From positions 30,808 to 94,807 of IMG/VR virus record IMGVR_UViG_3300048625_000156: 64,000 nucleotides of DNA, one strand, 5' to 3'. The stretch is from a virus. Numbering within the stretch: position 1 is the first letter of the stretch; every line of letters starts with the position of its first letter. Under the pieces are notes generated by a model, which saw only the letters and a program-made list of their open reading frames with translations, was not told the DNA's origin and made no database searches. A program made the translations under genes and the position numbers. Of this stretch, positions 9,433-64,000 are shown one piece after another.

Positions 9433-9474
9433 AAAGTAGTAATGGGGAGCAGCCGTTACGCCACTCCCCACCAC
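9433..9474 (-). terminator. Probable intrinsic terminator after ssb
   Basis: GC-rich hairpin GGGGAG..CTCCCC followed by TACTTTT. Confidence 0.5.
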
Positions 9475-9484
9475 AAATTGTTTT

Positions 9485-19600: not shown

Positions 19601-21269
19601 GATTAAAAGCTTGATCGTAGTCAAACATGTCTAGGCTTCCTGTAGATGCCAGTAGCTGTCCTACAGGCATACCACTTGAGCCAAGGTCTGAGGCATGTTT
19701 TGTTACAGATATAGATGTGATCTTGTCTGTAAGGTTTGCAGCAAGGCGTGGTGACATTTCAATTAGGTCGAAGGTCACGTTGTCAATTGTCATTGAGTCT
19801 ACAACGATTCTCATACCCTTCACATACTGAATATCCCTGTAAACCTTTGTTGTTCCGTCCATGTAATACGGTGGGGATGTTAGTTCGTCTATGAAGCTAG
19901 TGGTTCTGCTAGGAGTTTCTGAGTGCAAGTACCAGCCATATTCTGGTGTAAAGGAGTCGAAGTTATCCACCTTGTTTCCAGAGTCATTGCCGTTTGCAAC
20001 GTAGTAGGTCCCTGGTCCACTTGTAGACGGAACAAGGTATGCGTATCCCTCTGGTGCAGAGATTGGAAGTGCTTCAAAGGAGGACTGCTGGGGGGCAAAG
20101 ATCAGAGAGTCTGTGTACTCGTCTGGAACGATAAGACCATAAGCAAGCTCTACATATCCATCTGAAGGAATCTCAATGTTGTTATCTCCAGAAAAGTCTA
20201 CTGCATCTACCCAGTTATTCTGAGCGTTAAGTACTTGAATTTTCCAATCTAGAGGAACAGCCTTGGTTGCAGACGTATCATAAAATGGGTCGTCGAACGC
20301 ATTGCCGTCTTCATCAATGTATCCTCCGCTAGGGGCTGCATCGATGTCTCCGACTTTTGTCTGCATCTTGACCACCAATCTGTTTGATGGAAGACTATTC
20401 TTGTACACTACAAAGGGTGCTGCGTCGTCGATGAAGAACTTGTTACCAGACCTATAAGATACTCCACGAATATCCTCAAAGCTTTTGTCAACTGTTGCTG
20501 TTCCCTGTTCTCCATTTTCACTTAGAGTAACAGTTCCTGCAGTGCTATTGATAAGACCATATACCTTGAAGTATGTTGATGTGGCTGTCAGAATAACGAA
20601 GTCTCTGTTGATGGTTGACACAGACGCTTTGTTTACCCCCTGGATTGAAACGTAATCTCCAGCATCAAAAGAGTTCAAGGCGTAGACGGTGGTAACCCAA
20701 CCGTTTGAGGTTGACTTTGACTTTCCAACTTTTGTAACAGTTGCCGTTACAGTGGCAGTCTTGCCTTCTGTTCTAAGCGATGTCCAGTATTTGAAATTGT
20801 CATTTGCAGTACCAAAATAAAATCTTGGCTGTCTAGCCATGTCTGGGTGTACACGGTTTAGGTATTGTCCGTCGAAGTATATAGCTTTGTTGATTCCAGA
20901 ACGAGGGCGGAAGCGACCTAGGCAGTCCTCTAAAGAAAAAAGAGTCTTCATTTTATCTTTTTTAGAAATAAAGATTTGTGGGGTTCCGTCATCCTTAAAC
21001 CCACCGTCTACAACAACATCTGAGTCAGTCGCACCGAAGTAGTGCTTAGTTGCTGTTAGTGCATTTTCAGAAACAAAGTTAGTCTTTGGACCAGAAAAGA
21101 TATAGTCGTCGTCTCCGACCTCAGCATCTGGTCTATTGCGATAGTTACCAATTTCATCAATGTTTTCAGCAATGTTAAGATTCCACTCAGCAACAACGAG
21201 TGCTTGAGAGTTGATCGTAGAGGATGTCTCTAGATGTTTTTGTAAGTAGTTATTTTCGCTTTGCCACAT
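16686..21269 (-). CDS. Large tail-tip/baseplate hub protein (1527 aa)
   Basis: Second gene after tape measure; C-terminal PTLQLGDIVKI hub motif. Confidence 0.7.
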   Translation of the reverse strand: MWQSENNYLQKHLETSSTINSQALVVAEWNLNIAENIDEIGNYRNRPDAEVGDDDYIFSGPKTNFVSENALTATKHYFGATDSDVVVDGGFKDDGTPQIFISKKDKMKTLFSLEDCLGRFRPRSGINKAIYFDGQYLNRVHPDMARQPRFYFGTANDNFKYWTSLRTEGKTATVTATVTKVGKSKSTSNGWVTTVYALNSFDAGDYVSIQGVNKASVSTINRDFVILTATSTYFKVYGLINSTAGTVTLSENGEQGTATVDKSFEDIRGVSYRSGNKFFIDDAAPFVVYKNSLPSNRLVVKMQTKVGDIDAAPSGGYIDEDGNAFDDPFYDTSATKAVPLDWKIQVLNAQNNWVDAVDFSGDNNIEIPSDGYVELAYGLIVPDEYTDSLIFAPQQSSFEALPISAPEGYAYLVPSTSGPGTYYVANGNDSGNKVDNFDSFTPEYGWYLHSETPSRTTSFIDELTSPPYYMDGTTKVYRDIQYVKGMRIVVDSMTIDNVTFDLIEMSPRLAANLTDKITSISVTKHASDLGSSGMPVGQLLASTGSLDMFDYDQAFNPNNPDSLISYLQTKNLQVKFYESIYPDNGMVYHVPIKTLYAESFPETSASSKHVSVKVRDLFFHLEKMKAPELIIPNCSLSMAVSCLLDSIGFSNYTFRRIGQQEPVIPYFIVGPNTTIGQVLNDLAVSTQTAMFFDETNNLVLMTKEYMMPSETERATSMTLRGENEIIDNQVHLTNIAQLESQSDDVHNSGKITYETKYIQRSYSSLSQANVLDAEKTWVYKPVLLWEVSPGENTKAWNDESGKQSSYTLAAIPLDTTLSSDIPFVENGVVVNNTMDLGEAVYWLSRYNGYFYANGEIIKFDAVQYSTLTDGNVWISSPEEYQKYFATMPFGGKMYPTGLVRIYSEPYYDATANTLKNGKVAKHGRGQFGTSIVEHQAGLSSGWTDEKRVKKCKMVSTLMFNGGNTGITYQNVAAGVLTDWHSVKTATASGIMKNYLSSKEITETQTNKKNATTPGTVQSSALILDGPTYPSTVNPQDYIQYVTNPTPLDNRFVHYSTRMRVVGSMENQQSRTQTPVGSMPYYSVQDDQGKAVNVGGSSGGIGIWVDPTTNAGYYYEIVALTDTESKAYTATASAINTIFFYKIQSRPSDGLAVPIVLWSGMAPILVDDGRFTGQSRMVNEKNPTVYDISVEYQKSGTGVKFFMYLNGSLVGSVVDADPLNKHNNIALFTRGSSRIMFENVSALATNAEVNPSSLVNAPVANVFGMDNTTASTSMNKFALSGAIKSTFLTGVNAGVGKPEYNIYFEEFGTIMREMAYFNIKYDKAYPALFAKISPTFNNNQGYAVSGFTANAFGAEFLIFNTTDTVLSLDSGSGNYLRIQGVTFTQNSKHDYTVDEFFTDQGNLSDPDYRNNQVYSKKYEKAYSDIKKNRLTYGNKEFTIETPYIQSQGAAEDMMGWLVSKVMQPRKAVGLEIFSTPTLQLGDIVKIKYDEHGISQVSESDESRYVVYSIEYNRNGSGPTMVVHLSEVT

Positions 21270-21270
21270 A

Positions 21271-22104
21271 TTATGCCTCTTCTAGTGTAACAGAAACATT
21301 CCACATGTCGTAGTTGCTTCCACCACGTTTGTCTACCGTGTAGGAGAAGTCTGCAATATACATTTCAACTACCTGGCTATATTGCCCCAGGTGTCCATAG
21401 GCTGCTCTGTCATCACCAAAGTTTTTGTATTTGTCATATGATAGGAATACCCAGAATGATCCTGTGTGACTCTCGTACCAATCTAGAAGTTCGTTACCGC
21501 CAGCTCCTCCGTCAATTGTGTATGGGGTAGTTGAGGATTTGCCAGTTGTTGGGTTAATAGTTCCTGGTAGTGGGAATGCTCTTGATGGAAGATTTTTCCA
21601 AGATACAGAAAGTTTTAGTTTGTCTGCAATATGGTATGAACGCATACGACCATTAATCATACGCTCACGCTTTTCAATACGTTCTGGTGAGAAGTTTAGT
21701 CCATCACGGTTGTGGTCTGTCAGGAATATGAAGTCGCTAAACTCTGTACCGCCTGGCAAGAAAACGTATGATCCAGCGTTGAATGTGATTGATGTTGTAG
21801 AACTTTCTGAGTGTGCAACATTCACTGTAAAGGTTTTTGGTCCTGTAACTTCCACAACCTTTACGCTTGTTCCAAATGCTCCGTTGCCAGATGTCTTTAG
21901 TAGAACGTATCCTGGAACAAGACCTACAGTACTTCCACCATTTTCAGAAAGCTGAACCTCATAAGATCCTGATGTGATAACAGCATTTAAGCCTGTTACT
22001 TTCCAGTCTGGCTCTAGAGTTCCTGGGTTTTCAGAGAATAGGACGGCTTCTGGACGTGCGTACTTGATACGACCATCCATGTATGTTGGTGATACTGCTG
22101 GCAT
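21271..22104 (-). CDS. Distal tail-like protein
   Basis: Directly after tape measure; ends WNVSVTLEEA. Confidence 0.65.
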   Translation of the reverse strand: MPAVSPTYMDGRIKYARPEAVLFSENPGTLEPDWKVTGLNAVITSGSYEVQLSENGGSTVGLVPGYVLLKTSGNGAFGTSVKVVEVTGPKTFTVNVAHSESSTTSITFNAGSYVFLPGGTEFSDFIFLTDHNRDGLNFSPERIEKRERMINGRMRSYHIADKLKLSVSWKNLPSRAFPLPGTINPTTGKSSTTPYTIDGGAGGNELLDWYESHTGSFWVFLSYDKYKNFGDDRAAYGHLGQYSQVVEMYIADFSYTVDKRGGSNYDMWNVSVTLEEA

Positions 22105-25100
22105 TAAACTCTACTTCCCTTCATTCCCTGACCTTCAACTCGTTGAATCTGCTGCATAACTGTCTTTGCAATCTGATCAGCGTTTGCGTCTGACTTAACG
22201 TTAACACTGATACTATAATTATACACTGAACTGCCTCCGCCTGAAGGCATTTCTCCACGGTTAATCTTAGCCATGTTTCCAGCACCAAGCTTGTCAGTTG
22301 CTGACTTCTTTACTACAAACTCTCCTTGTTGTAGCATAGCAGGAATTGTGTCCTTGCCCATAGGCTTAAATATAGGCATCTTTCCATTAGCAAGGTAGTT
22401 CATCATACCGCCAGAAGCAAAGTGCTTAGCAACACGTCCACCCATAGCCCAACCCTCAGACTTTGCACTCTTGAGTTCTTTAAGGTCTTTATTTTGGGTT
22501 GCTGCGTCAAGAAGTGACTGCCACTGCTCTTTGGTCTTTCCACCAAATGTTAGGCTTGCAATCTGAGAATCTTTTGCCTCAGTCATTCTATCACGCTGTT
22601 CTTGCATGGCAGCGTTCTGAGCGTTCTGGCGAGCCTGTTGCTGTGCTCTTGCAGCAGCACCGATGTCACCCTTTGACAATGCGTCAGCAAGGTCTAGCTG
22701 GTCCTTCTTCTGCTGGTTGATAACATCGTTAGCCTTCTGAATCTTATCCATAGCCTTCATGCGTTCATCGTAGGCTTTATTAATCTTTTCTTCCTGCTTA
22801 TTGATCTGGTTGATTGCACCACTGTAGTAGTCCATCTTGCGTTGCTGCTTGTCAATTGGAGTGCCTCCACCACCGCCACCACCAGTGTCACCTCCAGTGT
22901 CACCTCCAGCTGCAGGGGCTGCACCAGAACCCACACTCTTTCCAGCAAGATATGAAGCAAACATGCTAAAAGTCTTTGTTGGGTCTCCAGCAGCCCAAGC
23001 CTTAAATTGAGCCTGTAGATTCTTATCTCCAGCCATTCCCAAAGTTGCGTTAAAGTTAGCTAGATACTTAACTTTTTGAGATTTTGTTTTTAGATTTTGA
23101 AAAACTTTATCCTTGTTAATGAAATCCTGCATCTTTTTATCTACAACTGCTGTAGCAACAAGTTTTGTCTCTGGAATCTTTTTTAAGTCATCTGTGGTCT
23201 TTTTATATGCGTTTGCAAACGTGTTCAGTTTAGTCATAGCGTCATCAGTAGTTAGGTCTAGATTGACATTCTGAAGACCAGCAGTAACCGCTTCCTGGTC
23301 TGCTGTGCTACGAGAAGCTCTCTCAAGAGCACCTGTGGTAACTGCTGTGTTCGCTCCACGAGCTTGAGCACTGCCCATAAGCTCTGTCGTCTGACGGTCG
23401 CCCATGGCATTAACGGAAGCCTGGTATGCTGTTGAGAAGTTTCCTCCAACAGTTCCAGCACCGCCACCACCTTCACCAGCCATTTTAATAACACTAGCCA
23501 TGTCTTGGTTACCAATTGCATCTCCAAGGAATTGCCCCTCAAGCAGCATTCTCATGTCGGAGTTTTCGACACCCTTAATAGCATCCTTTTGCTTGTTGGC
23601 TACAGTCTTCTCTTCTTCTGTTGCGTTGGCATACTTTTCATCAACTGCAGTATTGAATGTGCCCTTGTCGTCAACAGCCTTACCGACGGTGTTAATTTTT
23701 GCACGTTGATCAGCACCTGCCTTGTAGATTGCTGTAATGTCTGCATCCCTACTGCCCTCAAGCCCTGTTATCTCTGTCTTTAAGGCTGCTTTCTTTGTCT
23801 TGTCTGTTTCTGCATCAAACTCTTTTTGCTTTTCGGCAATCTTTTTGTCAACAGCAGCCACACCAGAGTCAATTGATGTTTGAATTGATCCATATGAACC
23901 AAGCATTGCTGTGTATCCTGCTTTAGCGTCGTCTCCTCTTCCAGGCTTAATGCCTCCAACCGTTCCATATGCATATTGGTCTTCTAATTTTGGTGCAGTA
24001 TAGGTTTGGTTTCCAGATGTGTATTGTTCACCTGGCTTTAACTTTTCACCCTTTAGGTTTGTCATGTTTCCGTATAACTTGTCAAAACTTTCTTGCTTTT
24101 GAGCTGTAATGTCTTTCTGAGTATATACAGCGTCGTCAAGAAGGAAGTCTGCGTTTTCAGTGGTTGACTGGATAAGCTTTGTTGTAACCTTTAGTGGATC
24201 TTTTAGAATGTCTGTTCCATCTGGTCCAAGAAGTTCTGATAGCTGTGAAGTAACTGTAATTGGGAATGCTGAGTCACCAAGCTCTTTACCAACAGCCGTT
24301 GCAATACTGTTGGCTTCTGTTAGTGTTAGAGTACCCTGCGAAATTGCTTGGGCAAGTGTAGCACTGTACTGCTGTGCAACCTGTGCTGGGGTTAGCTTGC
24401 CGCTTTCTTTTAGCTTTTCAAGGTTGGCAACGTCTGCCTTACCTGCATCAGAGGCGACGTAATCCTTACCAATCTGAAGGTCTTCTACCGACTTGAGACC
24501 TGCACGACGTGCATCTGACTCTGCTTGAGCAGCCTCTGTCAGTCCTACACGACCAGTAAGCTCTCCAAACTTCTTAACACTATCTGAAGCGACTGCCATA
24601 GCATTACCAAGCTGAGCAGCTTTCTTATTAGCTTCTGCTTGCTGCCATAATGAGAACGCAATAATTCCTGCAAATATAGCTAATGGTGCTGCAATTGCAA
24701 GAACTGCTGCTCCTGCTGCAGTGCCAAAGAATGTTGCAAGTCCTGCAAGCATTGTTTCTGGTATCAGGGCAATTACAGATTGGATAAGCATAAGTGGCAT
24801 CATGATTGCATTAGCAATTTCTCCCACCTTTCCAGGCATCATGGACAGTGTTCCCATTACTGCTGCGGTAGTCATCATTGCTTTACCGCTTCCGAGTTGA
24901 CCAATGACACCCTTACCAACTGTAGCTGCTGCTTGCTTTAGTTTTGTCCCTAGTTGAACAAGGCTAACCTTCATTCTTTCTACGCCAGCCTTGACTGCGG
25001 TTGCAGCAGTATTCATAGCATTACGAATTGCACCTGGAGCCTGAACTGCAAAGTTCTTGATGGCTACCATGCCCTCTGTCATCTTTTGCTTTGCAATAAA

Positions 25101-54210: not shown

Positions 54211-54603
54211 AATACTAATAATTATACCAGAATGTTAATAACTTTGTGGATAAGTCACGGCGGAAAAATAGAGCTACGCCTTCGGCGTAAAATCGGCGGT
54301 AAATAGAGATCCCAAATCCACCAATGCTACTAACGTAGCCATATGGATTACATAAAAATCTTTGCAGGATATCCCCAAACATTTCTTGCAGATAAGCCCC
54401 AAATAAAAACACCTCCCAGGAAGCCCTCAGATGCCCCTAGAAGGCGATAGAACTATATCCGACGAACTCTAGTATGGTCAAGAATGAACTTATATATATT
54501 TACTAGGTTATTCATAGTAACGTTAGACGTTATTAGGACCAAATCAAGAGAGCTGAAGCTCTTGTGTACCGTCCGAAGTTATGCTATACTTGTAATCTAT
54601 CGT

Positions 54604-54828
54604 ATGGGAGATACCTTGGAAGTCCTAGTTGTTCTAGTTGCACTCTACTTTTTTGTATTAATTTATGTTATTCCTGCAATTATTGGAATTGCATTAGTCG
54701 CACTTGTCCTTCAGTGGACAATAAACAAATTTGCAGCTCATGGAGAGCCAAATGATGATATTGAAGATCATCCATTGTATTGTGCTATCTGTGGAGATGT
54801 GGAAGATTGGCATAGACATGCTCCGTAA
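54604..54828 (+). CDS. Small membrane protein with CxxC
   Basis: Upstream TTGTGT-17-TATACT; start at ATG 54604 or TTG 54616. Confidence 0.55.
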   Translation: MGDTLEVLVVLVALYFFVLIYVIPAIIGIALVALVLQWTINKFAAHGEPNDDIEDHPLYCAICGDVEDWHRHAP

Positions 54829-54916
54829 GTTAGTTATCGTTACCCTCGGACTTTCAGCAATCTTCATTTGGATGTTTTTATTCCAATTCGTTATCAAATC
54901 GTTACTTAATATTTAG
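54818..54916 (+). CDS. 32-aa single-TM peptide
   Basis: MLRKLVIVTLGLSAIFIWMFLFQFVIKSLLNI; overlaps the upstream ORF. Confidence 0.4.
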   Translation: MLRKLVIVTLGLSAIFIWMFLFQFVIKSLLNI

Positions 54917-54925
54917 GAAAAACAT

Positions 54926-55087
54926 ATGAAACAGTTCGGAGTTACACACCTGGAGAAGCAATTCTGCAAATGTTGTGTTATTTTAGCTAATCCTAGAGCT
55001 AAAGTTAAGAAACAGACTGAAAAGTTGATCAAAGAGCAGATGGATGCCTTCCGAAATGACGAAAATCTGAAAAAATTTTCAAATTGA
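54926..55087 (+). CDS. Hypothetical 53-aa protein
   Basis: AGGA SD; MKQFGVTHLEKQFCKCC... Confidence 0.5.
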   Translation: MKQFGVTHLEKQFCKCCVILANPRAKVKKQTEKLIKEQMDAFRNDENLKKFSN

Positions 55088-55296
55088 CAAAAATCTGAAT
55101 ATTTTATAAAGATGAATGATACACGCTATGAAAACAAAACTCAAGATCGAATAGTGAGCACACACCAGGGGCATAGTATCTAGGGACACTACACACCCCC
55201 CTAATGTTATCATTTTGTTACCAAACTAACGGCGTGTCGATTTGATAAATGTCTGTGCCTGTGCTTATAATAGAGGTATAAAGAAAGGAAAAATAA

Positions 55297-55470
55297 ATGT
55301 TCGAATTCAACACAGTAATCATCACCAAGCGAGGTTCTCGTGAGGCAGGTGTATCGTTCTCTGTTCACACATTCAAGGCTACTACCGAGGCAGAGGTAAA
55401 GGCTATTGTTAGCCACCCCTCAATAGCAGGGTGGAAGTATGGATACAGCATTGGCTACGCTAAGATGTAG
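55297..55470 (+). CDS. Microprotein, 57 aa
   Basis: Own promoter, AAAGGA SD; MFEFNTVIITKRG... Confidence 0.75.
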   Translation: MFEFNTVIITKRGSREAGVSFSVHTFKATTEAEVKAIVSHPSIAGWKYGYSIGYAKM

Positions 55471-55518
55471 TTAGATGTCTGCCCCTACTGATACAATCAA
55501 ACTAACAAAAGGAAAATA

Positions 55519-55641
55519 ATGACTACTGCTGAAATGAAACTACGCTATAACGAACTTATGCGAATTGCTAAGTCTGGTGACTATATGTCTATGGCTGAGT
55601 TTGAAGAGTTACTTGCCCTTAGTAAAAAGTTGAAGAAGTGA
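55519..55641 (+). CDS. Microprotein, 40 aa (paralogue of 56202-56324)
   Basis: MTTAEMKLRYNELMRIAKSGDYMSMAEFEELLALSKKLKK. Confidence 0.75.
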   Translation: MTTAEMKLRYNELMRIAKSGDYMSMAEFEELLALSKKLKK

Positions 55642-55775
55642 TTTGACTTCCCCCAGGAAATCTGGTCGGCAAAAATAACGTTTTGGTAACAAACAGTAAG
55701 AAACGCACTAAATGTCCCTAAAATGTCGTAGGGTCATGTTAGACTGTTAGCAACAACAAAGGATAGGAAATAGAA

Positions 55776-55859
55776 ATGAACGAGAAAACCCTAAAGGCTA
55801 TGATGGCTCAGATTGTTCGTGAGAACGCTAAGAAGATTGAAGAAGAAAAGAAAAAGTAA
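55776..55859 (+). CDS. Microprotein, 27 aa
   Basis: MNEKTLKAMMAQIVRENAKKIEEEKKK; own promoter and SD. Confidence 0.6.
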   Translation: MNEKTLKAMMAQIVRENAKKIEEEKKK

Positions 55860-55930
55860 CGGCGTGTCGATACCGTTAAATGTCAGACCCTCGTGCTAAA
55901 ATAAACTAACAAACAAACAAAGGACACTAA

Positions 55931-56131
55931 ATGAAAATCTCAAAGACTGCTCGCCAGAACTACATTCTTCTTGCCCTCGCTGGTATCTTCTTCTTGCTCG
56001 CTAAGGGTGGCGTTGATGACATTGCCAAGAATGGCGTTGAGGGCTTCGGTATCTTCTTCGTAATGATTGGTGGCTTGGCTATGGTTTGCTTCCTCATTGC
56101 CCTAATCGTTCGTATCTGGGACGCTGAGTAA
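55931..56131 (+). CDS. Two-TM membrane microprotein
   Basis: Own promoter, AAGGA SD, two hydrophobic helices. Confidence 0.8.
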   Translation: MKISKTARQNYILLALAGIFFLLAKGGVDDIAKNGVEGFGIFFVMIGGLAMVCFLIALIVRIWDAE

Positions 56132-56201
56132 ATGTCAGTGGTACTTGGTACACTTATCCTATTAGTACTCTTCATGTTGATAAACCAGTAAAGGAAAAAG
56201 A

Positions 56202-56324
56202 ATGTCAGTAGAACAGAAACTTAGAATGAAAGAACTTATGTGGATTGCTCGTGAGGGTGACTACATGAGCCAAGCAGAGTTTGATGAACTCTCTATGCTA
56301 ATCAAGATGAATGACTATAAGTAG
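56202..56324 (+). CDS. Microprotein, 40 aa (paralogue of 55519-55641)
   Basis: MSVEQKLRMKELMWIAREGDYMSQAEFDELSMLIKMNDYK. Confidence 0.75.
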   Translation: MSVEQKLRMKELMWIAREGDYMSQAEFDELSMLIKMNDYK

Positions 56325-56514
56325 TCTAATCACTTTTCTTGGGCGTGTCGCTTGACATTCCCTTGAAAAAGTGCCGACCAAAATTTTTGATCTTTGTCAA
56401 GCTTATTTTGGTAACAATTTCGTTATAATTATTTTCCCAAAACACCCCAAAATGTCCATAAAATGTCGTAGGTGCGTGTTAGTATATATACATAACAAAG
56501 AAATGAGAAATGAA

Positions 56515-56724
56515 ATGAACAACCTTCCAAAACTAATCGAAGCAAAAATTGACGCTTGGTCTTCTGTCTTCTCTGATGACGCTTCGTGTGTCAAGCGTGA
56601 TAATGACTACTACAACTCTCTAATCGCTAGTCAGTCAGAATACACTGATGAAGAAGTTTCTGCCTTTGCCAGCCAACTTTGGAATGGTGAAAAGACTAGG
56701 GCAGAACTTAGAATGTCTGCCTAA
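56515..56724 (+). CDS. Hypothetical early protein
   Basis: Start moved to MNNLPK, downstream of promoter 56464. Confidence 0.7.
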   Translation: MNNLPKLIEAKIDAWSSVFSDDASCVKRDNDYYNSLIASQSEYTDEEVSAFASQLWNGEKTRAELRMSA

Positions 56725-56778
56725 TCAATGTCAGTGGCTACTGATAAACTTATAACAACAAAAGAAATGAGAAATAAA

Positions 56779-56922
56779 ATGGAAAAACTAGTTTGTGTAT
56801 TTTGCGAAAACATCTATGAGGCAGGAACATTCGTCTGCCCTGAGTGTAACGAATACAAAGGAATGATGACTATCACTGACGCTTCTAAGGAGTATGACTT
56901 CTTAGAGTATCTAACCGAGTAA
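56779..56922 (+). CDS. Zinc-ribbon microprotein
   Basis: MEKLVCVFC...CPEC. Confidence 0.75.
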   Translation: MEKLVCVFCENIYEAGTFVCPECNEYKGMMTITDASKEYDFLEYLTE

Positions 56923-57094
56923 TCGGTGTGTCGGCTTGACAGCTGCCCCGAAATCTGGTCGGCAAATTTTTTGGCTTTTGTCAAGCTTTTTAGATAACAA
57001 TTTCGTTATAAAAACTTTTCAGTTTTACGGCGTGTCGGTTATAAAATGTCGGTGGGTGGGTGTATACTGATAGTATCAAAAGAAATGAGAAATA

Positions 57095-57253
57095 ATGTAT
57101 CCAGATAAAGACCTAACCCCTTGTGAAAAGTGTGGCTCGCTTGGCAAAGTTGTAGTAGACATTTGGAGCGTTCCGTTTTTTGCTCACAAAGTCCCTAGCA
57201 CTCGTATCGCAGGATACTTCACTTTTGTTAGCGAATGCGTTACCAAATCGTAA
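57095..57253 (+). CDS. Microprotein, 52 aa, CxxC
   Basis: MYPDKDLTPCEKCGSLG...; own promoter. Confidence 0.6.
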   Translation: MYPDKDLTPCEKCGSLGKVVVDIWSVPFFAHKVPSTRIAGYFTFVSECVTKS

Positions 57254-57336
57254 TAAAAAACTTTTCACGCTACGGCGTGTCGCAGGGTTAAATGTCAGAC
57301 CCCCCCTGTATAATAGAGGTATAACAACAAAACAGA

Positions 57337-57407
57337 GATACTGAATGAGCCTAGCAGGTGTGAGCCTCGCAAGAGCAAATAAAACCCCTAGCAAATAAGT
57401 CAGTATC
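57337..57407 (+). ncRNA. Rod-like leader RNA with two nested UGAGC/CAAAUAA internal loops
   Basis: GATACTGA/TCAGTATC outer stem; CTAG/CTAG; CTC-GCAA-GAG apical GNRA hairpin. Confidence 0.55.
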
Positions 57408-57433
57408 AACCCTAATAAAGAAAAGAGAAATAA

Positions 57434-57664
57434 ATGGAAATCGGAACCAAAATCAAGACTCACGACAACGGCTACTTTGGCAAGATTGTGTCGCTTGACC
57501 CTATCCGCTTGGGCGTAGTTGCTCAAATCAAGAACAACGTCTTTGGCAAGTCATACATTGCCCTTGCTGCTGAACTTGACGAAACTAGCGACAGCCCAAA
57601 GGGTTTCACTACTATCGTTGCTGAAAATGTTGAGGCACTTCAGGCTCGCTACGCAGTAGCCTAA
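57434..57664 (+). CDS. Hypothetical early protein (beta-rich)
   Basis: ORF downstream of promoter 57293. Confidence 0.8.
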   Translation: MEIGTKIKTHDNGYFGKIVSLDPIRLGVVAQIKNNVFGKSYIALAAELDETSDSPKGFTTIVAENVEALQARYAVA

Positions 57665-57682
57665 TGAGGATGAGGGGGGTAG

Positions 57683-57713
57683 TTATCCACAGCTACCCCC
57701 CAAGTTATCCACA
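57683..57713 (+). promoter_or_regulatory. Tandem perfect DnaA boxes
   Basis: TTATCCACA at 57683 and 57705. Confidence 0.7.
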
Positions 57714-57728
57714 GGGAGCCGACCAGGA

Positions 57729-57744
57729 TCGAACAAACGTTCGA
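57729..57744. promoter_or_regulatory. Actinobacterial LexA (SOS) box
   Basis: TCGAAC-AAAC-GTTCGA, a perfect match to TCGAAC-N4-GTTCGA. Confidence 0.75.
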
Positions 57745-57846
57745 ATGTAACAGTTTGGTAACATCGTTAAGAAACACCCCATAATCTCCCTAAAATGTCC
57801 TACCCCCCTGCTACAATAGAACTATCAACAAAGAAAGGGCAACTAA

Positions 57847-57978
57847 ATGCCAAAGTCACGATACACACTATTTGAATACACGATGAACGGTCAGCAGGTT
57901 GTTTCTGCTATCCACGTCTATGACCTTGGGTCATTCCTGCGTGAACACCCAGAGGCTAAGGTCAAGGTGACTAAGTGA
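57847..57978 (+). CDS. Microprotein, 43 aa
   Basis: MPKSRYTLFEYTMNGQQVV...; own promoter and SD. Confidence 0.7.
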   Translation: MPKSRYTLFEYTMNGQQVVSAIHVYDLGSFLREHPEAKVKVTK

Positions 57979-58103
57979 GAACTATTGAAATCGTTACCCC
58001 AGAGGGTAAAAGTCAAATCCTGGAATACACTGACGGCAACCTGAAATGGGCTAAGAAACTATTTGCTAACGGCTTTCTTCAGTCTTGGGAAATCTTAGAA
58101 TAG
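57975..58103 (+). CDS. Microprotein, 42 aa (GTG start, coupled)
   Basis: GTGA overlap; MRTIEIVTPEGKSQILEY... Confidence 0.65.
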   Translation: MRTIEIVTPEGKSQILEYTDGNLKWAKKLFANGFLQSWEILE

Positions 58104-58133
58104 TTATCCACAGGATGGCGAAAGTTATCCACA
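58104..58133 (+). promoter_or_regulatory. Tandem perfect DnaA boxes
   Basis: TTATCCACA at 58104 and 58125; reversed copies also at 54245 and 58896. Confidence 0.7.
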
Positions 58134-58272
58134 GGTGGTCGGCGGTTTTCGATCTGGATCAGGTTACGAGAGCATTAAAAAATCTCCCAGAAATTCCCAG
58201 AAAGTTACGGCGTGTCTCCCTATAATGTCGGTGGTTACCTGTATAATAGAACTATCAAACAAAGGACAGACA

Positions 58273-58461
58273 ATGAACGAAATGGAAATCAAACTCTACG
58301 ACCTAATGGCACAGGTTGAGGCTAACAAGGGTGGCGATAACGAACAGGCAATGGAAGACATTGGCAACATTCTCACCCTGCTAGAAGTTTTCCACTGGGA
58401 AGACTACAAGCGAATTGTAATCGCTAAATTCAATGTCCCTGCTGACCACTTCGAAGACTAA
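58273..58461 (+). CDS. Hypothetical early protein
   Basis: Start moved to MNEMEIK after AAAGGA SD. Confidence 0.75.
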   Translation: MNEMEIKLYDLMAQVEANKGGDNEQAMEDIGNILTLLEVFHWEDYKRIVIAKFNVPADHFED

Positions 58462-58510
58462 AATGTCGGTGGCTCAGGGTATAATAGAAACATCAACGAA
58501 AGGTAAACTA

Positions 58511-58675
58511 ATGGAATACGGAAAACTGGCAGAACTCGCAAAGATTGTTTTTGGCTATGAAACTATCGAACAGGCAGAAGTTGCTGTTGGCAAACTGCTT
58601 TACTCAGGGTCTAGCGACCAGCAAATCACTCGTCTTGCTGACTTGCTTATCGAAACCATCAAGGAGAATAACTAA
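58511..58675 (+). CDS. Hypothetical early protein
   Basis: Start moved to MEYGKL after AAAGG SD. Confidence 0.75.
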   Translation: MEYGKLAELAKIVFGYETIEQAEVAVGKLLYSGSSDQQITRLADLLIETIKENN

Positions 58676-58869
58676 TGATGACCCGAAAAGACTATGTTGA
58701 AACTGCTCGCATTCTAGCAGGTTTTAGAGAAGACTTGCTATCTATTGGCGATAAGGGTGAGCATATTTTCACTTGTCTAATCGCTGAGTTTGCTGAAATG
58801 TTTGAGAACGACAATGAGCGTTTTCAGGGAGACCGATTTGACGACGCTTGCTGGGAGGGTGGGGAGTAA
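58675..58869 (+). CDS. Hypothetical phage protein (MTRKDY...NERF...RFDDAC type)
   Basis: TAATG coupling, AAGGAG SD. Confidence 0.8.
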   Translation: MMTRKDYVETARILAGFREDLLSIGDKGEHIFTCLIAEFAEMFENDNERFQGDRFDDACWEGGE

Positions 58870-58969
58870 TCCCCTGCCCCCTGGGGTCGGCAGCCTGTGG
58901 ATAACTATTTATGAAGATCCATTTAAGATCCCCAGATTAAATGTCGGTGGCTTGATGTATAATAAGACT

Positions 58970-59140
58970 ATGAAGAAAAGAACTAAGCCAATAAACAATG
59001 TAAACGAAGCAACTCGCAAGGCTCACTCTGCCGAGTTATTTAAGAGTTTGCTACTCACTAAGCACACCGTTGTTGTTCCCGAACACCGCAAGGGAACAAG
59101 GCAGTCTAACATTCGTAAGGCTATCAACGAATCGCTATAA
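58970..59140 (+). CDS. Basic microprotein, leaderless
   Basis: ATG 6 nt after TATAAT; MKKRTKPINN...HRKGTRQSNIRKAINESL. Confidence 0.7.
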   Translation: MKKRTKPINNVNEATRKAHSAELFKSLLLTKHTVVVPEHRKGTRQSNIRKAINESL

Positions 59141-59189
59141 TGTCTGACCCCAATGCTATAATGGTATTACCCAGAAAGAAAGGAACACT

Positions 59190-59285
59190 ATGTTCGAAAA
59201 TGTAATCAACGAACAGGCTATTGCTGACCTTACCCCTGAAGAGGCAGCACAGATAATGGACATTCTAGAGAAAGCAGGATACTAA
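59190..59285 (+). CDS. Microprotein, 31 aa
   Basis: MFENVINEQAIADLTPEEAAQIMDILEKAGY; AAAGGA SD. Confidence 0.65.
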   Translation: MFENVINEQAIADLTPEEAAQIMDILEKAGY

Positions 59286-59503
59286 TGACAGGCTACGTTA
59301 CACGTCAGACTAAGGTTGCTGAGGTTACTCGCTGGAGCGAGGACTACTCAAGTGACATCGGAACAGTATGGTCTGCCGAAAACTTTTTCGGTTTCTACAA
59401 AACCAAGTTGAACGGTAAGACTAAATACTTCAAGGGTGAGATGGCTGAGATGGACATCGAACGCATGTTTCATGATGCTGGAGATTGGAATTGCAGGATT
59501 TGA
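59285..59503 (+). CDS. Hypothetical early protein
   Basis: TAATG coupling. Confidence 0.75.
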   Translation: MTGYVTRQTKVAEVTRWSEDYSSDIGTVWSAENFFGFYKTKLNGKTKYFKGEMAEMDIERMFHDAGDWNCRI

Positions 59504-59661
59504 TGGATGACAGATTCGAACGCCACTTCAATCACGATATTGTTATTGCTAAGTATACTGGTCTGGATGATAAACCAGTAAATTACTCAGTCGAATGTGA
59601 AGACTGCCACGAAGTCATCATTGACGATGAAGCCTTCTTTCAACTAACTACCCCATTCTAA
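59503..59661 (+). CDS. Zinc-binding microprotein, 52 aa
   Basis: MDDRFERHFNHDIVIAKY...VECEDCHEVIID; TGATG coupling. Confidence 0.7.
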   Translation: MDDRFERHFNHDIVIAKYTGLDDKPVNYSVECEDCHEVIIDDEAFFQLTTPF

Positions 59662-59671
59662 GGAACAAACC

Positions 59672-59794
59672 ATGGACGAACAAGCAGCAGAAATTATTGA
59701 AAACCTCAATGAGTACTACGCTAACCCTCAAGACTATTCACTTCAAGACTTGGAGGACATCTTCCAAGACCGTGACCCATTCGAATTCCTTTAG
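59672..59794 (+). CDS. Acidic microprotein, 40 aa
   Basis: MDEQAAEIIENLNEYYANPQDYSLQDLEDIFQDRDPFEFL; AAGGA SD. Confidence 0.65.
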   Translation: MDEQAAEIIENLNEYYANPQDYSLQDLEDIFQDRDPFEFL

Positions 59795-59912
59795 GGGGAT
59801 TCGGTGGGGAGCCGCCGACCAGATCGGCAGCTTTCAATTACGACACGCTTACGAAATCCCTTAAATGTCAGTGGTTGGATGTATAATAGAGTTATCAAAG
59901 AAAGTTGGACTA

Positions 59913-60632
59913 ATGACCCTGATTCGCTCTAAAGACCGTAAAGTTGCTAACCAAGTAAACAAGGCTGGCACTCAAGCAAGTATGGCTAACACTTTTGGAC
60001 TGCCTAGTGGCAAGGCGTTTAGTTGCCCTGGTGCTACTAGCGTATGCGAAACTATTTGCTATGCTGGCAAACTTGAAAAGGTGTTCAAGGGTGTTCGTAA
60101 TGTTTTGGTTTCAAACTATGAGCAACTACTCAATGCTGACTTTACTGGCAAGACTATGCTACTGGCAGAGATGATTCAGGATTTTGTTGCTGAATGCGAA
60201 AAGCGTAATGCCGAAAAGTTATTCCGTATCCACTGGGATGGCGACTTCTTCAATGAGGAATACACTAGGGCTTGGGCAGTAGTTATTCGTATGTTCCCCG
60301 ATGTTCAATTCTGGGCATACACTCGTTCAGACTTTGCTGTTCCAATGCTAATCAACATTCCTAACCTTGCTCTCTACTTCTCTGCTGATTCTGCTAACAA
60401 AACTCTTGCTTGGGAATTGAAGCGTAAGTATGGTGTGAAACTTGCTTATCTTGCTAAAGACTTTGCTACTGGCAAGTCTGACTTCAATGAGCAACAGGAT
60501 AAGTCTGCTGTACCCTGCCCTGAAAACAATCGCAAGTTGGCTATGATTAGCGAAAAGGGTAGTGCTTGTGTTACTTGCTCGCAGTGTGTGTTTGCTCGCA
60601 ATGACATTCTGTTTAGTGCTAGTAAAAAGTAG
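59913..60632 (+). CDS. GP88-like Cys-rich (Fe-S / radical-SAM-like) protein
   Basis: FGLPSG...CPGATSVCETICYA...FRIHWDGDF...FWAYTR...CPE...CVTCSQC; start moved to MTLIRS. Confidence 0.7.
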   Translation: MTLIRSKDRKVANQVNKAGTQASMANTFGLPSGKAFSCPGATSVCETICYAGKLEKVFKGVRNVLVSNYEQLLNADFTGKTMLLAEMIQDFVAECEKRNAEKLFRIHWDGDFFNEEYTRAWAVVIRMFPDVQFWAYTRSDFAVPMLINIPNLALYFSADSANKTLAWELKRKYGVKLAYLAKDFATGKSDFNEQQDKSAVPCPENNRKLAMISEKGSACVTCSQCVFARNDILFSASKK

Positions 60633-60820
60633 ATAGGCTGGCTACCCCGAAAGGGGAGCTGCCGACCACAGATCGATCCAAAAGTCAAATGTTACGATTG
60701 TGTTACGAAACCCCCTAATCACTATTAAATGTCGGTGGTAGCCTGTATAATGGAAACATACAGCAAGAGAGACACAGCAAGAAACAGAAAATAAAAAACT
60801 AAAAAAGTTTGAGAATGTGC

Positions 60821-60849
60821 TTGACTTTTCCCTCTCAACCCTGTATAAT
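60821..60849 (+). promoter_or_regulatory. Canonical SigA promoter
   Basis: TTGACT-17-TATAAT, in tandem after the TGTCGG-type promoter at 60730. Confidence 0.8.
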
Positions 60850-60921
60850 AGAAGTATCAGCAAAAATGTTGGTATAAATAACAAGAAGCAAAGTCCTAGA
60901 AATAGGCAGAAAGGTTCGATT

Positions 60922-61077
60922 ATGTCGAACATCACTATCCCATCTGTTGGCTCGCAGTTCACTACTCAGGCAAGCAAGGTATCTGGAACTGTTCAGGAAG
61001 TTGTAATGAACAAGTCTGGTTCTGCTCGTGTTCGTCTTGATGTAAATGGACAGCCTCGCTGGACAACCATCAAGTAA
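60922..61077 (+). CDS. Small SH3-like beta protein, 51 aa
   Basis: Start moved to MSNITIP after AAAGG SD. Confidence 0.75.
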   Translation: MSNITIPSVGSQFTTQASKVSGTVQEVVMNKSGSARVRLDVNGQPRWTTIK

Positions 61078-61091
61078 TCCACTAGGTGGTA

Positions 61092-61118
61092 ATCCTGAGC
61101 AAGATGAAAAACTGCTCA
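61092..61118 (+). ncRNA. Mini H-type pseudoknot, copy 1
   Basis: ATC-C-TGAGCA-A-GAT-GAAAAAC-TGCTCA. Confidence 0.55.
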
Positions 61119-61191
61119 CCACACCCCCTATAATAAATGTCTCACCCCCCTGCTATAATAGTAGGACAACCCCAAAAGAAAGAAGAACAAA

Positions 61192-61644
61192 ATGGCTCGT
61201 GCCGTATCCGTAAAAATCCCAACCGCTAAGGTCATTGAGTTGATTGAGCAGAAGATTGCCCAGATTGACCAAGATGTTGCCACCTACCCTGCTCGCAAGG
61301 CTAAGTATCAGGCAGACTACAAGGTATACACCGAAAAGGTTGTTGCCACTCTTGCTAAGTTGCTGAAACAAGATGGTTCTGCTCTTCTTGCCGAAGAGAA
61401 CACCGATAAGGGTATTCGTGTTAGCACCAACTACCGCAACGCAGTAGAAATCACCATTGGCAAGGAACTGCTGGACTTGGAAAAGCCAAAAGAGCCACAA
61501 GACCCAGAGCCAAAGGGCTACTACTCACACAACGCATACAGCACCAAGCGTGAAGAGTTGGAAAAGACCCTCCGTCTGCTTCGTATGACCGAACAGGAAA
61601 CTATCACCTCCTCAACCTACAACTCGGTTCTGGAACTGCTGTAA
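61192..61644 (+). CDS. Hypothetical coiled-coil early protein
   Basis: Own promoter; 150 aa. Confidence 0.8.
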   Translation: MARAVSVKIPTAKVIELIEQKIAQIDQDVATYPARKAKYQADYKVYTEKVVATLAKLLKQDGSALLAEENTDKGIRVSTNYRNAVEITIGKELLDLEKPKEPQDPEPKGYYSHNAYSTKREELEKTLRLLRMTEQETITSSTYNSVLELL

Positions 61645-61649
61645 AACCA

Positions 61650-61830
61650 TAGGCTTACGCCTAAACACCTAAGCAAGTGTCTAAAAGGCTTCCCCCATTG
61701 GGTAGAATGGTAATAGTTTGTCTGTTTGATAAAAGGATAAATAGACTTTGGCAGTAGCAAGTAAAAGGTGTTGAGGTAATACTGCTGAGTATAGACACAC
61801 CACACCTGAGCAAGTGTAGTAAAAGGCTCA
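61650..61830 (+). ncRNA. Structured non-coding tract containing pseudoknot copies 2 and 3
   Basis: Pseudoknots at 61665-61691 and 61802-61830; hairpins TAGGC/GCCTA, GTCTGTTT/AAATAGAC, ATACT/AGTAT. Confidence 0.55.
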
Positions 61831-61832
61831 CT

Positions 61833-61868
61833 AATCCCCTTGTGTAATAGCAGGGGGATTTTTCTTTA
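61833..61868 (+). terminator. Intrinsic terminator
   Basis: AATCCCCT...GGGGGATT followed by TTTCTTT. Confidence 0.7.
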
Positions 61869-61983
61869 CCCGAAAATCGGGTCGGCAGCTCTCAAGATCC
61901 GCTTTAAGAATGTGCCAGGAAATCCCTATAATGTCAGTGGTAGGCTGTATAATGGAACTACAACCCAAAGAAAAGGAAAACTA

Positions 61984-62196
61984 ATGTATACATTCCACAG
62001 CCGAAAGGCTTACATCTCGGCAGATGGTTCTTACTCTGCTAATGAGGATACTATCACTTTTGATACTGATGCCCTCACAAATGAGCAATGGGAGATTGTA
62101 GATGACCTTCCAGATTCTATGAAGATGGAATACGCTATCGCTATCCTTGATGGTGATGATGACTTTGTAAACGAAATCGAAAGCGAGTATAAGTAA
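61984..62196 (+). CDS. Acidic early protein
   Basis: Start moved to MYTFHS after AAGGA SD. Confidence 0.75.
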   Translation: MYTFHSRKAYISADGSYSANEDTITFDTDALTNEQWEIVDDLPDSMKMEYAIAILDGDDDFVNEIESEYK

Positions 62197-62513
62197 TGGG
62201 AGCACGAACAGTATTTGAGGTAAAAGACCGTAGTGGAAGCATTTTCCTTTATTCACATTGGGGAGGGGACACTAAGATTGAAGACGCTATTGACGCTCTC
62301 AAAAAGGCAGAGCCACGATGGCAGGATACTACCTATGGTATGCGTATCTTCATTAGCCAGATTGTTGGTGAAGCATGGAAAGATGAAACTGGCTATGGCA
62401 TTTCTGCTGGACATACCTTTGAGGAACAGTATGACCCAATGGTGATTGACTTTGAAACCAATACCGTTACTTATCTTGATGAGGACTTATCGTTCAGAGA
62501 GTTCATCAGTTAG
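62196..62513 (+). CDS. Hypothetical phage protein (MGAR...LYSHWGG type)
   Basis: TAATG coupling. Confidence 0.8.
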   Translation: MGARTVFEVKDRSGSIFLYSHWGGDTKIEDAIDALKKAEPRWQDTTYGMRIFISQIVGEAWKDETGYGISAGHTFEEQYDPMVIDFETNTVTYLDEDLSFREFIS

Positions 62514-62560
62514 ATGTCGTAGGGTGGCTGTATAATAGGACTAACAACGAAAGGAAAGCA

Positions 62561-62707
62561 ATGAGAGCATTTGAGATACTTACAGGCGAACTCGTTTTGG
62601 TTTATGCCGAAACCGAAGATGAAGCAATGGAGAAACTTGGTGAGGGTGAGTATGAGGAAATCGAAACCCTGTCAGAGGTTCAGAGAGAGTATGAGGTGGC
62701 TGAATGA
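62561..62707 (+). CDS. Acidic microprotein, 48 aa
   Basis: MRAFEILTGELVLVYAETEDEAMEKL...; own promoter and SD. Confidence 0.7.
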   Translation: MRAFEILTGELVLVYAETEDEAMEKLGEGEYEEIETLSEVQREYEVAE

Positions 62708-62889
62708 AAACCATTGACGAACTAATCGCATTCTGTAAAGAGAACATTGCTGAGTTAGATAGTTATGTGCTTGATAACGATAGTGATAGCGAATACTTTT
62801 CAGGCGTTCAATCTGCCTATGCTCAGGTTATCCTTTTCCTTACTGGTGAAGAGATAGAGGTTCCCCAAATCCCCTACCCAGAAATGTAG
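62704..62889 (+). CDS. Acidic microprotein
   Basis: ATGA coupling. Confidence 0.75.
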   Translation: MKTIDELIAFCKENIAELDSYVLDNDSDSEYFSGVQSAYAQVILFLTGEEIEVPQIPYPEM

Positions 62890-63016
62890 GGGTGCTGGGC
62901 TGCCGACCCAATTGTAACGATCAGGTTACGAAGCTTACGAAACGGTTCCCCAATCCCTATAATGTCAGTGGTCCACTGTATAATAGAGGTATCAACAAAA
63001 AGAAAAGGAAACCCCT

Positions 63017-63382
63017 ATGAGCCGTGAACGTGGAACCCTTGTCTACAAGATGGACGAGAACGCAACCCTAGCCCTTATCCGTAACAAACTTGGTAAGCCT
63101 GACGCTGACGTAAAGCCAGACATTATGGTTGTTGCTATTGGTAAGAATGGTCCTGCTACTATCTGCCGTGAGGGTGTAGGTTGGTGGGCTGACGCTAATG
63201 GTGGTATCCCTATCAACTTCTATTCTGGTAACTATGGCTCTGGTGGCTTTGTAGATGTTACCGCCGAAGAGTTGTCTGATGTAACTACTGACGAAACTAT
63301 GGACCTTGCTGACTTCATCAACGAGTTTGGCGACCGCCTAGAAACTAACTTCTACCTTTGGCAACAATACATCAAAGGTTAG
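63017..63382 (+). CDS. Hypothetical early protein
   Basis: Own promoter, AAGGA SD. Confidence 0.8.
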   Translation: MSRERGTLVYKMDENATLALIRNKLGKPDADVKPDIMVVAIGKNGPATICREGVGWWADANGGIPINFYSGNYGSGGFVDVTAEELSDVTTDETMDLADFINEFGDRLETNFYLWQQYIKG

Positions 63383-63437
63383 ATGTCGTACCCCCCTGTT
63401 ATAATAGATAGTATCAACCCTAAGAGAAAGAAAGAAA

Positions 63438-63908
63438 ATGGCATTTGACGAAAACGGAAATGTTGTACCTGACCCTATTAGTGCTTCTAGTGTTCTTGGT
63501 GAAGCAGTAAGTGAACACCCTGTACTTACCCCACTGAAAAATCGTATCGCTGAGTTAGAGCGTGAGGTTGAGATTGTCAAGGGTAACTCTGATAACTATC
63601 GCAACCGTTGGAATGAACTCTGTAGCCAACGCTACACGCTTGAGAATGCTCTGCGTACCTTTGTCGAAGATGAAGAGATTGAACTAAGCATTGCTACCCA
63701 GATTGCTGAAATCTTTGACATCACCCTGACCAAGACCATTGACGTTGAACTGACTTTCAAGGTTACCGTTTCGGTTGAGGTTCCTCTCGGTGAAGAGATG
63801 ACTGCTGATGACGTTGCTGACAACGTTAGCATTTCTGTAGACTACTACGGCACAGGGGAGTTGCTTGAAAGCGACAGCGACCTTGATGACTGGAGTGAAC
63901 GTTCATAG
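63438..63908 (+). CDS. Acidic coiled-coil early protein
   Basis: Own promoter; 156 aa. Confidence 0.8.
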   Translation: MAFDENGNVVPDPISASSVLGEAVSEHPVLTPLKNRIAELEREVEIVKGNSDNYRNRWNELCSQRYTLENALRTFVEDEEIELSIATQIAEIFDITLTKTIDVELTFKVTVSVEVPLGEEMTADDVADNVSISVDYYGTGELLESDSDLDDWSERS

Positions 63909-63940
63909 GGGGCTATGAAAACATGCAGTGATATGCATGG

Positions 63941-63968
63941 ACATCCTGAGCATGATGTAAAAAGGCTC
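63941..63968 (+). ncRNA. Mini H-type pseudoknot, copy 4
   Basis: ACATC-C-TGAGC-AT-GATGT-AAAAAG-GCTC. Confidence 0.55.
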
Positions 63969-64000
63969 CTTCTTCATGCCTGGAATTTGCCGACCCCCCC

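Follow-up and report, generated by a model that had tools for sequence, protein, structure and literature searches.

A promoter array of PafBC-type architecture in the small-gene block of an uncultured actinophage

We analyzed a 64,000-nucleotide stretch of viral DNA (hereafter, the window) that spans positions 30808-94807 of the 94,807-bp IMG/VR record IMGVR_UViG_3300048625_000156. Near its downstream end, between window positions 55250 and 63405, small open reading frames (ORFs) on the plus strand are preceded, one after another, by a TGTC box and a -10 element in the arrangement TGTCnn-N10-TAnnnT. A first-pass annotation had listed 21 such promoters and proposed that they are wired to PafBC, a transcriptional activator of the host. 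Here we describe this array, its conservation in related phages, and the factors that might read it.

The promoter array and the small-gene block

The pattern TGTCNN-N10-TANNNT is found 30 times in the window, compared with 11.5 ± 3.6 times in shuffled sequences. Twenty-two of these matches fall within 55250-63405, every one of them on the plus strand, where a first-order Markov simulation gives an expectation of 0.54 per strand and a maximum of 4 in 2000 runs. The remaining eight are dispersed on both strands and are compatible with chance. Promoter-like sites fronting small ORFs account for 21 of the 22 (Table 1), and the 22nd match, at 55713 (TGTCCC), is a tandem upstream half-site and not a promoter. 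These counts bear out the 21 promoters of the first-pass annotation and their invariant spacing, and its tally of hexamers is exact (TGTCGG x5, TGTCAG x7, TGTCGT x4, TGTCTG x3, TGTCCT x1 and TGTCTC x1). Its figure of 14 TATAAT elements has to be lowered to 13. The array also extends beyond the limits that it had set, given that a scan of the rest of the genome, which it had recommended, places four further sites past the contig junction (genome positions 213, 1459, 2506 and 4851), for about 25 in all.

The architecture of the sites is strikingly uniform. The start of TGTC lies 16 nt before the -10 element in 21 of 21 sites, an A directly precedes TGTC in all 21, and the -10 element always conforms to TAnnnT. 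The invariant TGTC is followed by RG (R, purine) in 12 sites. Three types of box can be distinguished, namely TGTC[AG]GTGG (n = 10), TGTCnn[AC]CCC (n = 7) and TGTCGTAGG (n = 3), and the single remaining site is TGTCTGTGCC. The sites lie 21-47 nt ahead of a Shine-Dalgarno sequence and start codon and have a leader in common. As the first-pass annotation had remarked, they show no consistent -35 element: a sigma-70 scan returned 21 sites where 17.5 are expected, and good -35 hexamers, including any TTGnnn at 17 ± 1 nt from the -10 element, are found only at 55242 and 60821. The canonical extended -10 (TGn) is present at only 10 of the 22 matches, and a TG abuts the hexamer directly at 9. Judged by their sequence, these are genuine promoters of a hybrid kind, which combines a sigma-A -10 element (TAnnnT) with a box, (A)TGTCRG, at -28 to -23 and has no -35 element.

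Promoters on the minus strand, which serve the structural and replication genes, are of the TGnTATAAT or -35/-10 types and never carry the box, in agreement with what the first-pass annotation had noted for these genes. Since ordinary, box-free promoters (TTGACT-N17-TATAAT and TGnTATAAT) are present in the same genome, the box marks a separate class of promoter that is confined to one block. The promoter at 60821 serves as an internal control, showing that an ordinary -35 element is read by the host sigma factor.

Table 1. Promoters and the small-gene block in the window (window positions; promoters of the array are given from box to -10 element)
Feature	Box	-10 element	Position	Strand	Associated features
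Small-gene block			54484..64000	+	Continues over contig junction to ~genome 5200, ~15 kb in total, meeting a DnaA-box-rich non-coding region
Promoter	TGTCTG	TATAAT	55250..55271	+	-35-like TTGATA 18 nt upstream of -10; ORF 55297-55470 begins 25 nt downstream
Promoter	TGTCTGCCCC	TACAAT	55476..55497	+	ORF 55519-55641
Promoter	TGTCGTAGG	TAGACT	55724..55745	+	Tandem ATGTCC half-site 11 nt upstream at 55713; ORF 55776-55859
Promoter	TGTCAGACCC	TAAAAT	55881..55902	+	ORF 55931-56131
Promoter	TGTCAGTGG	TACACT	56133..56154	+	ORF 56202-56324
Promoter	TGTCGTAGG	TAGTAT	56464..56485	+	Tandem ATGTCC half-site 11 nt upstream; ORF 56515-56724
Promoter	TGTCAGTGG	TAAACT	56729..56750	+	ORF 56779-56922
Promoter	TGTCGGTGG	TATACT	57047..57068	+	ORF 57095-57253
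Promoter	TGTCAGACCCC	TATAAT	57293..57314	+	
Promoter	TGTCCTACCCC	TACAAT	57796..57817	+	ORF 57847-57978
Promoter	TGTCGGTGG	TATAAT	58226..58247	+	ORF 58273-58461
Promoter	TGTCGGTGG	TATAAT	58464..58485	+	Operon with 64-aa ORF 58675-58869 (60 related loci)
Promoter	TGTCGGTGG	TATAAT	58942..58963	+	
Promoter	TGTCTGACCCC	TATAAT	59141..59162	+	ORF 59190-59285
Promoter	TGTCAGTGG	TATAAT	59866..59887	+	Fronts GP88-family gene 59913-60632
Promoter	TGTCGGTGG	TATAAT	60730..60751	+	
Canonical promoter, TTGACT-N17-TATAAT		TATAAT	60821..60849	+	Ahead of 51-aa ORF 60922-61077
Promoter	TGTCTCACCCC	TATAAT	61138..61159	+	ORF 61192-61644; ACCCC class
Promoter	TGTCAGTGG	TATAAT	61932..61953	+	Operon with 105-aa ORF 62196-62513 (phrog_31860; 54 related loci)
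Promoter	TGTCGTAGG	TATAAT	62515..62536	+	ORF 62561-62707; GTAGG class
Promoter	TGTCAGTGG	TATAAT	62963..62984	+	ORF 63017-63382
Promoter	TGTCGTACCCC	TATAAT	63384..63405	+	ORF 63438-63908

The record is rated 100% complete, has a 127-bp terminal overlap and a G+C content of 43%, and is the complete genome of an uncultured, lytic-type actinophage, an assignment that follows from the presence of WhiB, DUF932 and GP88 proteins. Its genes form two blocks, a minus-strand block of ~79 kb and the plus-strand block of small genes. The former encodes the structural proteins (collagen-like tail fibres, portal, protease, capsid, tape measure and minor tail proteins) together with a DnaE polymerase, 21 tRNAs, WhiB, ThyX, a dNMP kinase and a pyrimidine-dimer glycosylase. 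The closest matches are Streptomyces cluster BE phages (Stanwilliamsviridae; 57% identity for DnaE, 49% for the portal and 53% for the DUF932 protein), and by these protein identities the phage is a distant relative of that cluster. A megablast search of 20 kb against isolated phages gave no match. Among 30 proteins of the small-gene block and its neighborhood, Pfam and PHROGs searches recognized only DUF932, GP88, phrog_31860, the pyrimidine-dimer glycosylase, ThyX, dNMP kinase, a GT4 glycosyltransferase and WhiB, and a protein atlas offered no function for the conserved 51-aa and 64-aa ORFs. We found neither a tyrosine nor a serine integrase in the phage, which makes it unlikely that the array serves prophage induction.

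Two features of the minus-strand block deserve mention in their own right. The tRNA genes are clustered at genome positions ~21055-23504 and cover 19 amino acids. The pyrimidine-dimer DNA glycosylase gene, which lies outside the window at genome positions 7716-8261 (Pfam Pyr_excise, E = 7e-22), fits a UV-exposed habitat and may have some tie to the theme of DNA damage.

Several other repeats accompany the array. The window has 11 GCCGACC heptamers (2.0 expected), and every one of them is located in the array, at 55664-63995 and in either orientation; further copies are found near genome positions 1360 and 5195. They typically follow directly after a C-run/G-run hairpin, 70-90 nt upstream of a box promoter, and might serve for recombination, nicking or the binding of a protein. 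Where the array begins, two spacers (56350-56405 and 56930-56990) have GCCGACC between inverted TTGACA...TGTCAA half-sites, which form an operator-like dyad. A second repeat, (AC)GGCGTGTC(G), has six copies, all on the plus strand (0.85 expected), at 55231, 55861, 56342, 57029, 57274 and 58209. Five of the six have their start ~20 nt, and their own TGTC ~15 nt, ahead of a promoter's ATGTC box and supply a second TGTC site; no CRP-type palindrome was seen at these copies. Perfect DnaA boxes (TTATCCACA) number six (0.7 expected; 54245, 57683, 57705, 58104, 58125 and 58896) and occur within array spacers as pairs ~21 nt apart. Others are found at genome positions ~5211-5833, in the AT-rich strand-switch region past the block, which is likely to be an origin.

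Conservation of the array in related phages

A strict form of the site (ATGTCRGTGG-N5-TGTATAAT) matched at least 120 stretches in IMG/VR, and almost every locus fetched from there carries a strand-specific array. The same pattern matched 18 stretches in 596 Gb of bacterial genomes, which is approximately the chance level. No prophage copies are among these bacterial matches, and those with multiple copies are phage-like contigs in metagenome-assembled genomes (MAGs) labelled Bifidobacterium, Flavobacteriaceae, Bacteroidia and Actinomycetota. One of them, CAZCDW010000001.1 (85 kb), was deposited in an 'uncultured Bifidobacterium' MAG and is a phage genome of the same family, with a 13-site array, ~78% nucleotide identity in the early genes and a G+C content of 41-45%. 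Its placement in that MAG is most likely a binning error; the rest of the MAG holds no WYL gene.

The loci related to our phage share a good deal besides the array. Block proteins are common to the phage and 110 of 120 loci, WhiB is encoded in 8 of 8 complete records, and CheckV completeness values put the genomes at ~95-116 kb. Within the block, the 64-aa ORF is conserved in 60 loci, the 105-aa ORF in 54 and the 51-aa ORF, which has its own canonical promoter, in 38. The array, carried by more than 100 IMG/VR contigs, is a trait of one large phage family and not of several.

To measure conservation, we used 1019 sites from ~120 related IMG/VR loci, leaving aside the sites by which the loci had been fetched. 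At the free positions after TGTC these sites have R in 95% and G in 90%, followed by T/A, G/C and G/C, and the position before TGTC is A in 66% and T in 27%. Their logo shows no conservation at -35. The register is nearly absolute, with TGTC starting exactly 16 nt before TATAAT in 476 of 485 TGTCRG...TATAAT pairs. A TGn precedes the -10 element in ~57% of the family's sites. We considered whether weak boxes are offset by an extended -10 element and rejected the idea, because the share of TGn is 57-62% in every box class.

These figures bear on the notion that the box is functionless and was merely carried along in a promoter-leader cassette copied through the block, like the mobile promoter/stem-loop cassettes of T4-type phages. 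Within the phage, the cassettes do share both a leader (…AGAnnTATCAACAAAGGA…ATG) and upstream repeats (GCCGACC, GGCGTGTC), as such copying would leave them. Across the 1019 sites of diverged relatives, however, TGTCRG and its register are conserved and the flanks are not, and selection also acts on this box in host genomes. We therefore regard a passive passenger as highly improbable.

Correspondence with PafBC promoters and possible readers of the box

PafBC, which acts as master activator of the DNA-damage response in actinobacteria, is the only known case of sigma adaptation by a host protein. Its in vivo consensus is tGTCgg(N10)tA(N3)T, without a -35 element (PMC8635444). The helix-turn-helix (HTH) domain of PafB contacts positions -23 to -28, where R46 and R50 read both guanines of GTC, and the HTH domain of PafC docks on domain 4 of sigma-A (PMC8635444). 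The heterodimer is switched on by single-stranded DNA (ssDNA) that binds to its WYL domains, and is inactive without it (PMC11804915). With the -10 element at -12 to -7 and a register of 16 nt, the TGTCRG box of the phage falls at -28 to -23, which is precisely the published range of contacts. Given this position of the box, the -10 element and the absence of a -35 element, the phage sites agree with the PafBC class in every sequence-level feature that defines it. The box, its R-G-T-G-G extension and the 10-nt gap coincide with the host motif at 9 positions at least. At the level of sequence, the match to the PafBC class is thus better than the first-pass annotation had stated.

To look for a potential reader, we examined the order to which a 1.5-Mb Actinomycetota MAG carrying a 1.5-kb phage-like contig belongs. 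The genomes of this test set are 1.2-2.2 Mb in size, with ~43-51% G+C in the loci sampled, and we infer that the order is the freshwater acI/Nanopelagicales lineage (PMC10202952). An adjacent pair of WYL genes, each encoding ~310-340 aa, is present in 40 of 40 complete genomes sampled from this order, which may not be that of the phage's host. In one of these genomes the pair matches the two subunits of the solved M. smegmatis complexes (E = 1e-38 for PafB and 2e-22 for PafC), and in the single PafB that was checked the RMFER motif is kept, with the GTC-reading R46 and R50. The pattern TGTCRGTG-N8-TANNNT gave 24 hits compared with 6 for the control in five candidate genomes, and TGTCRGTGG-N7-TANNNT gave ~116 compared with 12 in 41 candidate genomes. 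In the candidate genomes examined, the genes that follow the box are recA, radA, carD and a LysM gene, several of which also have a LexA-type box. Since pafB-pafC and TGTCRGTGG boxes occur together in this order, plausible hosts own both the reader and the same extended box.

The reading that we find best supported, and to which we lean by a little, is that the host PafBC heterodimer reads the phage boxes. Because the phage promoters are built like host PafBC promoters, the phage probably borrows the PafBC switch, and PafBC would then bind at the phage sites. In mycobacteria, ssDNA-bound PafBC wedges between region 4 of sigma-A and the DNA and causes RNA polymerase to accept exactly such a geometry, a mechanism known as 'sigma adaptation'. 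Use of PafBC by the phage would place ~25 transcription units under the host's ssDNA alarm; together these units hold roughly 45 small genes, those for the DUF932 and GP88 proteins among them. The alarm may be expected to sound during infection, whether from resected DNA ends, replication intermediates or degraded host DNA. The block itself is presumably expressed early, judging by the counterpart to which it is homologous in the terminal repeats of Streptomyces BE phages. The suggestions of the first-pass annotation that incoming DNA might trigger the array by itself, or that the array might titrate PafBC, are speculation. We came across no account of PafBC-type promoters in phages when we searched the literature.

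Several observations weigh against a role for PafBC. The proposal of the first-pass annotation holds as far as the geometry, TGTCRG, the register and the missing -35 element are concerned, but in 10 of 21 sites the letters that follow TGTC are unlike those of host boxes (TGTCnnACCCC and TGTCGTAGG), and the ACCC variant has no counterpart in 5 candidate host genomes. The A that invariably stands at -1 in the phage differs from host sites, which mostly have T. About half of the sites have TGn, which may allow some activity without an activator. The dependence of PafBC on ssDNA (PMC11804915) would be awkward for immediate-early genes, and because the arrays occur in one phage family only, convergent evolution cannot be invoked in favor of a host factor. 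Finally, the phage's host is an actinobacterium whose membership of the candidate order is tentative, being suggested by G+C content, freshwater-type relatives and the 1.5-kb phage-like contig in one MAG. Binning is unreliable in this family, since sibling phage contigs were binned in Bifidobacterium, Flavobacteriaceae and Bacteroidia MAGs. We also attempted to assign a host through the phage WhiB, which failed because its best bacterial matches are only 29-48% identical and carry no lineage signal.

That the arrays are all in one family makes it possible that the box is read by a family-specific factor encoded by the phage, in the manner of T4 MotA/AsiA, in which case the likeness to PafBC promoters would stem from mimicry or from a structural solution common to both. 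The genes of the block would then form a middle class, turned on by the product of a gene with an ordinary promoter. The ~95-116 kb genomes of this family share conserved block proteins of unknown function (64-aa, 105-aa and 51-aa) that might include such a factor, the activator-independent promoters on the minus strand and ahead of a few plus-strand genes could act first, the A at -1 is invariant in this phage, and the ACCCC subclass is phage-specific. Against this, searches of the genome detected neither a DNA-binding domain nor a WYL domain, a sigma region 4 or a PafB-like HTH. The absence of a WYL gene near the array, which the first-pass annotation had reported, extends to the whole 94.8-kb genome, which has no sigma-70 region 4 either, and no tblastn match of PafB or PafC to the phage had an E value below 0.7. 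Neither Pfam nor PHROGs gave a function for the conserved block proteins, in searches that did not target MotA and AsiA by name. Agreement with the host motif at 9 or more positions would, moreover, have to be ascribed to chance or mimicry. We consider a phage-encoded adaptor unlikely, though worth keeping in view.

The strength of the -10 elements raises a different alternative, in which RNA polymerase with sigma-A fires alone from a strong or extended -10 element, and the box is either an operator through which a repressor of the phage or the host shuts the promoters off or a decoy that sequesters PafBC and thereby dampens the host's response to DNA damage. The perfect TATAAT at 13 of 21 sites and the frequency of TGn in the family would suit such promoters, as would the box-free TGnTATAAT promoters that serve minus-strand genes. 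A location between -35 and -10 is typical of operators, and the number of boxes per genome copy, 25 in the phage compared with 1-5 of the TGTCRGTGG type (5-8 with the looser TGTCRGTG) per candidate host genome, is in keeping with a decoy. On the other hand, a register that is rigid to the single nucleotide is what a polymerase-docked protein would impose, and not a free operator, and class A sites of the phage have neither a -35 element nor a canonical TGn. M. smegmatis RNA polymerase with sigma-A does not use PafBC-type promoters unaided (PMC8635444, PMC11804915). An operator or decoy function is accordingly one that we hold to be distinctly unlikely.

A more far-reaching version of the PafBC explanation is that the host's ssDNA sensor serves as a built-in infection timer, which would give the phage a complete temporal programme without an RNA polymerase or sigma factor of its own. 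The PafBC boxes would hold the takeover block silent until ssDNA made by the phage appears, and its local sources might be the GCCGACC cores or the DnaA boxes that many promoters have 70-90 nt ahead of them. Hundreds of replicated box copies would then drain PafBC from the host's repair regulon. The family-universal WhiB, by its family a binder of sigma region 4, would later displace PafBC, so that activity would persist only at the TGnTATAAT promoters of the structural genes, which need no -35 element. We give this elaborate scheme little credence.

If a role for PafBC is confirmed, the array would provide the first known example of a lytic phage whose transcription programme runs on the PafBC adaptor, and would show that a T4-style replacement of the -35 element can be achieved with a host factor alone. 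Infection by this abundant, uncultured phage family would also be tied to the ssDNA and UV-damage state of the host, and ~1000 natural promoter variants would become available with which to dissect recognition of the PafBC box.

Comparison with known systems

The phage sites resemble the PafBC (RecA-NDp) promoters of Mycobacterium and other Actinobacteria in the TAnnnT element, the tGTCgg box exactly 10 nt upstream of it and the lack of a -35 element, and the extended TGTCRGTGG also precedes recA in candidate hosts. They differ in that ~25 of them stand in tandem in a lytic phage, ahead of small genes of unknown function and not of repair genes, and in having A instead of T at -1, frequent TATAAT and TGn, and the additional ACCCC and GTAGG subclasses. 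Phage genes are tied to a host regulator of DNA damage by the LexA (SOS) boxes of temperate phages as well, through release of a repressor in lysogens, whereas the promoters described here are of the activator type and belong to a phage without an integrase. In form, with many same-strand promoters before small ORFs in a single block, the small-gene block is like a phage host-takeover block and resembles the host-takeover modules of SPO1 and T5. It departs from the canonical sigma-A early-promoter arrays of such blocks in its -35 region, where a TTGnnn at 17 ± 1 nt from the -10 element is present only at 55242 and 60821.

In the way it would work, the array resembles the middle promoters of T4, where a MotA box at -30 together with AsiA brings about 'sigma appropriation'. 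There, too, a box at a fixed distance replaces the -35 element in dozens of copies, and an adaptor re-aims region 4 of sigma, which AsiA remodels. The likeness is one of working and not of membership. Both T4 adaptors are encoded by the phage, whereas no candidate adaptor was found in the present genome and the box equals the one read by a host adaptor.

By descent, the nearest counterpart is the terminal-repeat block of the Streptomyces cluster BE phage Jay2Jay (NC_029098), which is homologous (its DUF932 protein is 53% identical) and likewise consists of same-strand small genes, each with a strong promoter after a hairpin. Its promoters differ in being TTGnnn-N17-TAGACT, with a -35 element. 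At 7116-9898, and in the second copy of the repeat at 129209-131991, 4 of ~11 promoters have a TGTC 16 nt before TAGACT in addition to the -35-like TTGnnn, and this TGTC is followed by C or T and not by RG. The Streptomyces phage Wakanda has no array. Given that Jay2Jay has a -35 element and Wakanda lacks an array, it looks as if the freshwater lineage exchanged its -35 element for a box at -26, and Jay2Jay may offer a tractable cultured system for the role of the -26 position.

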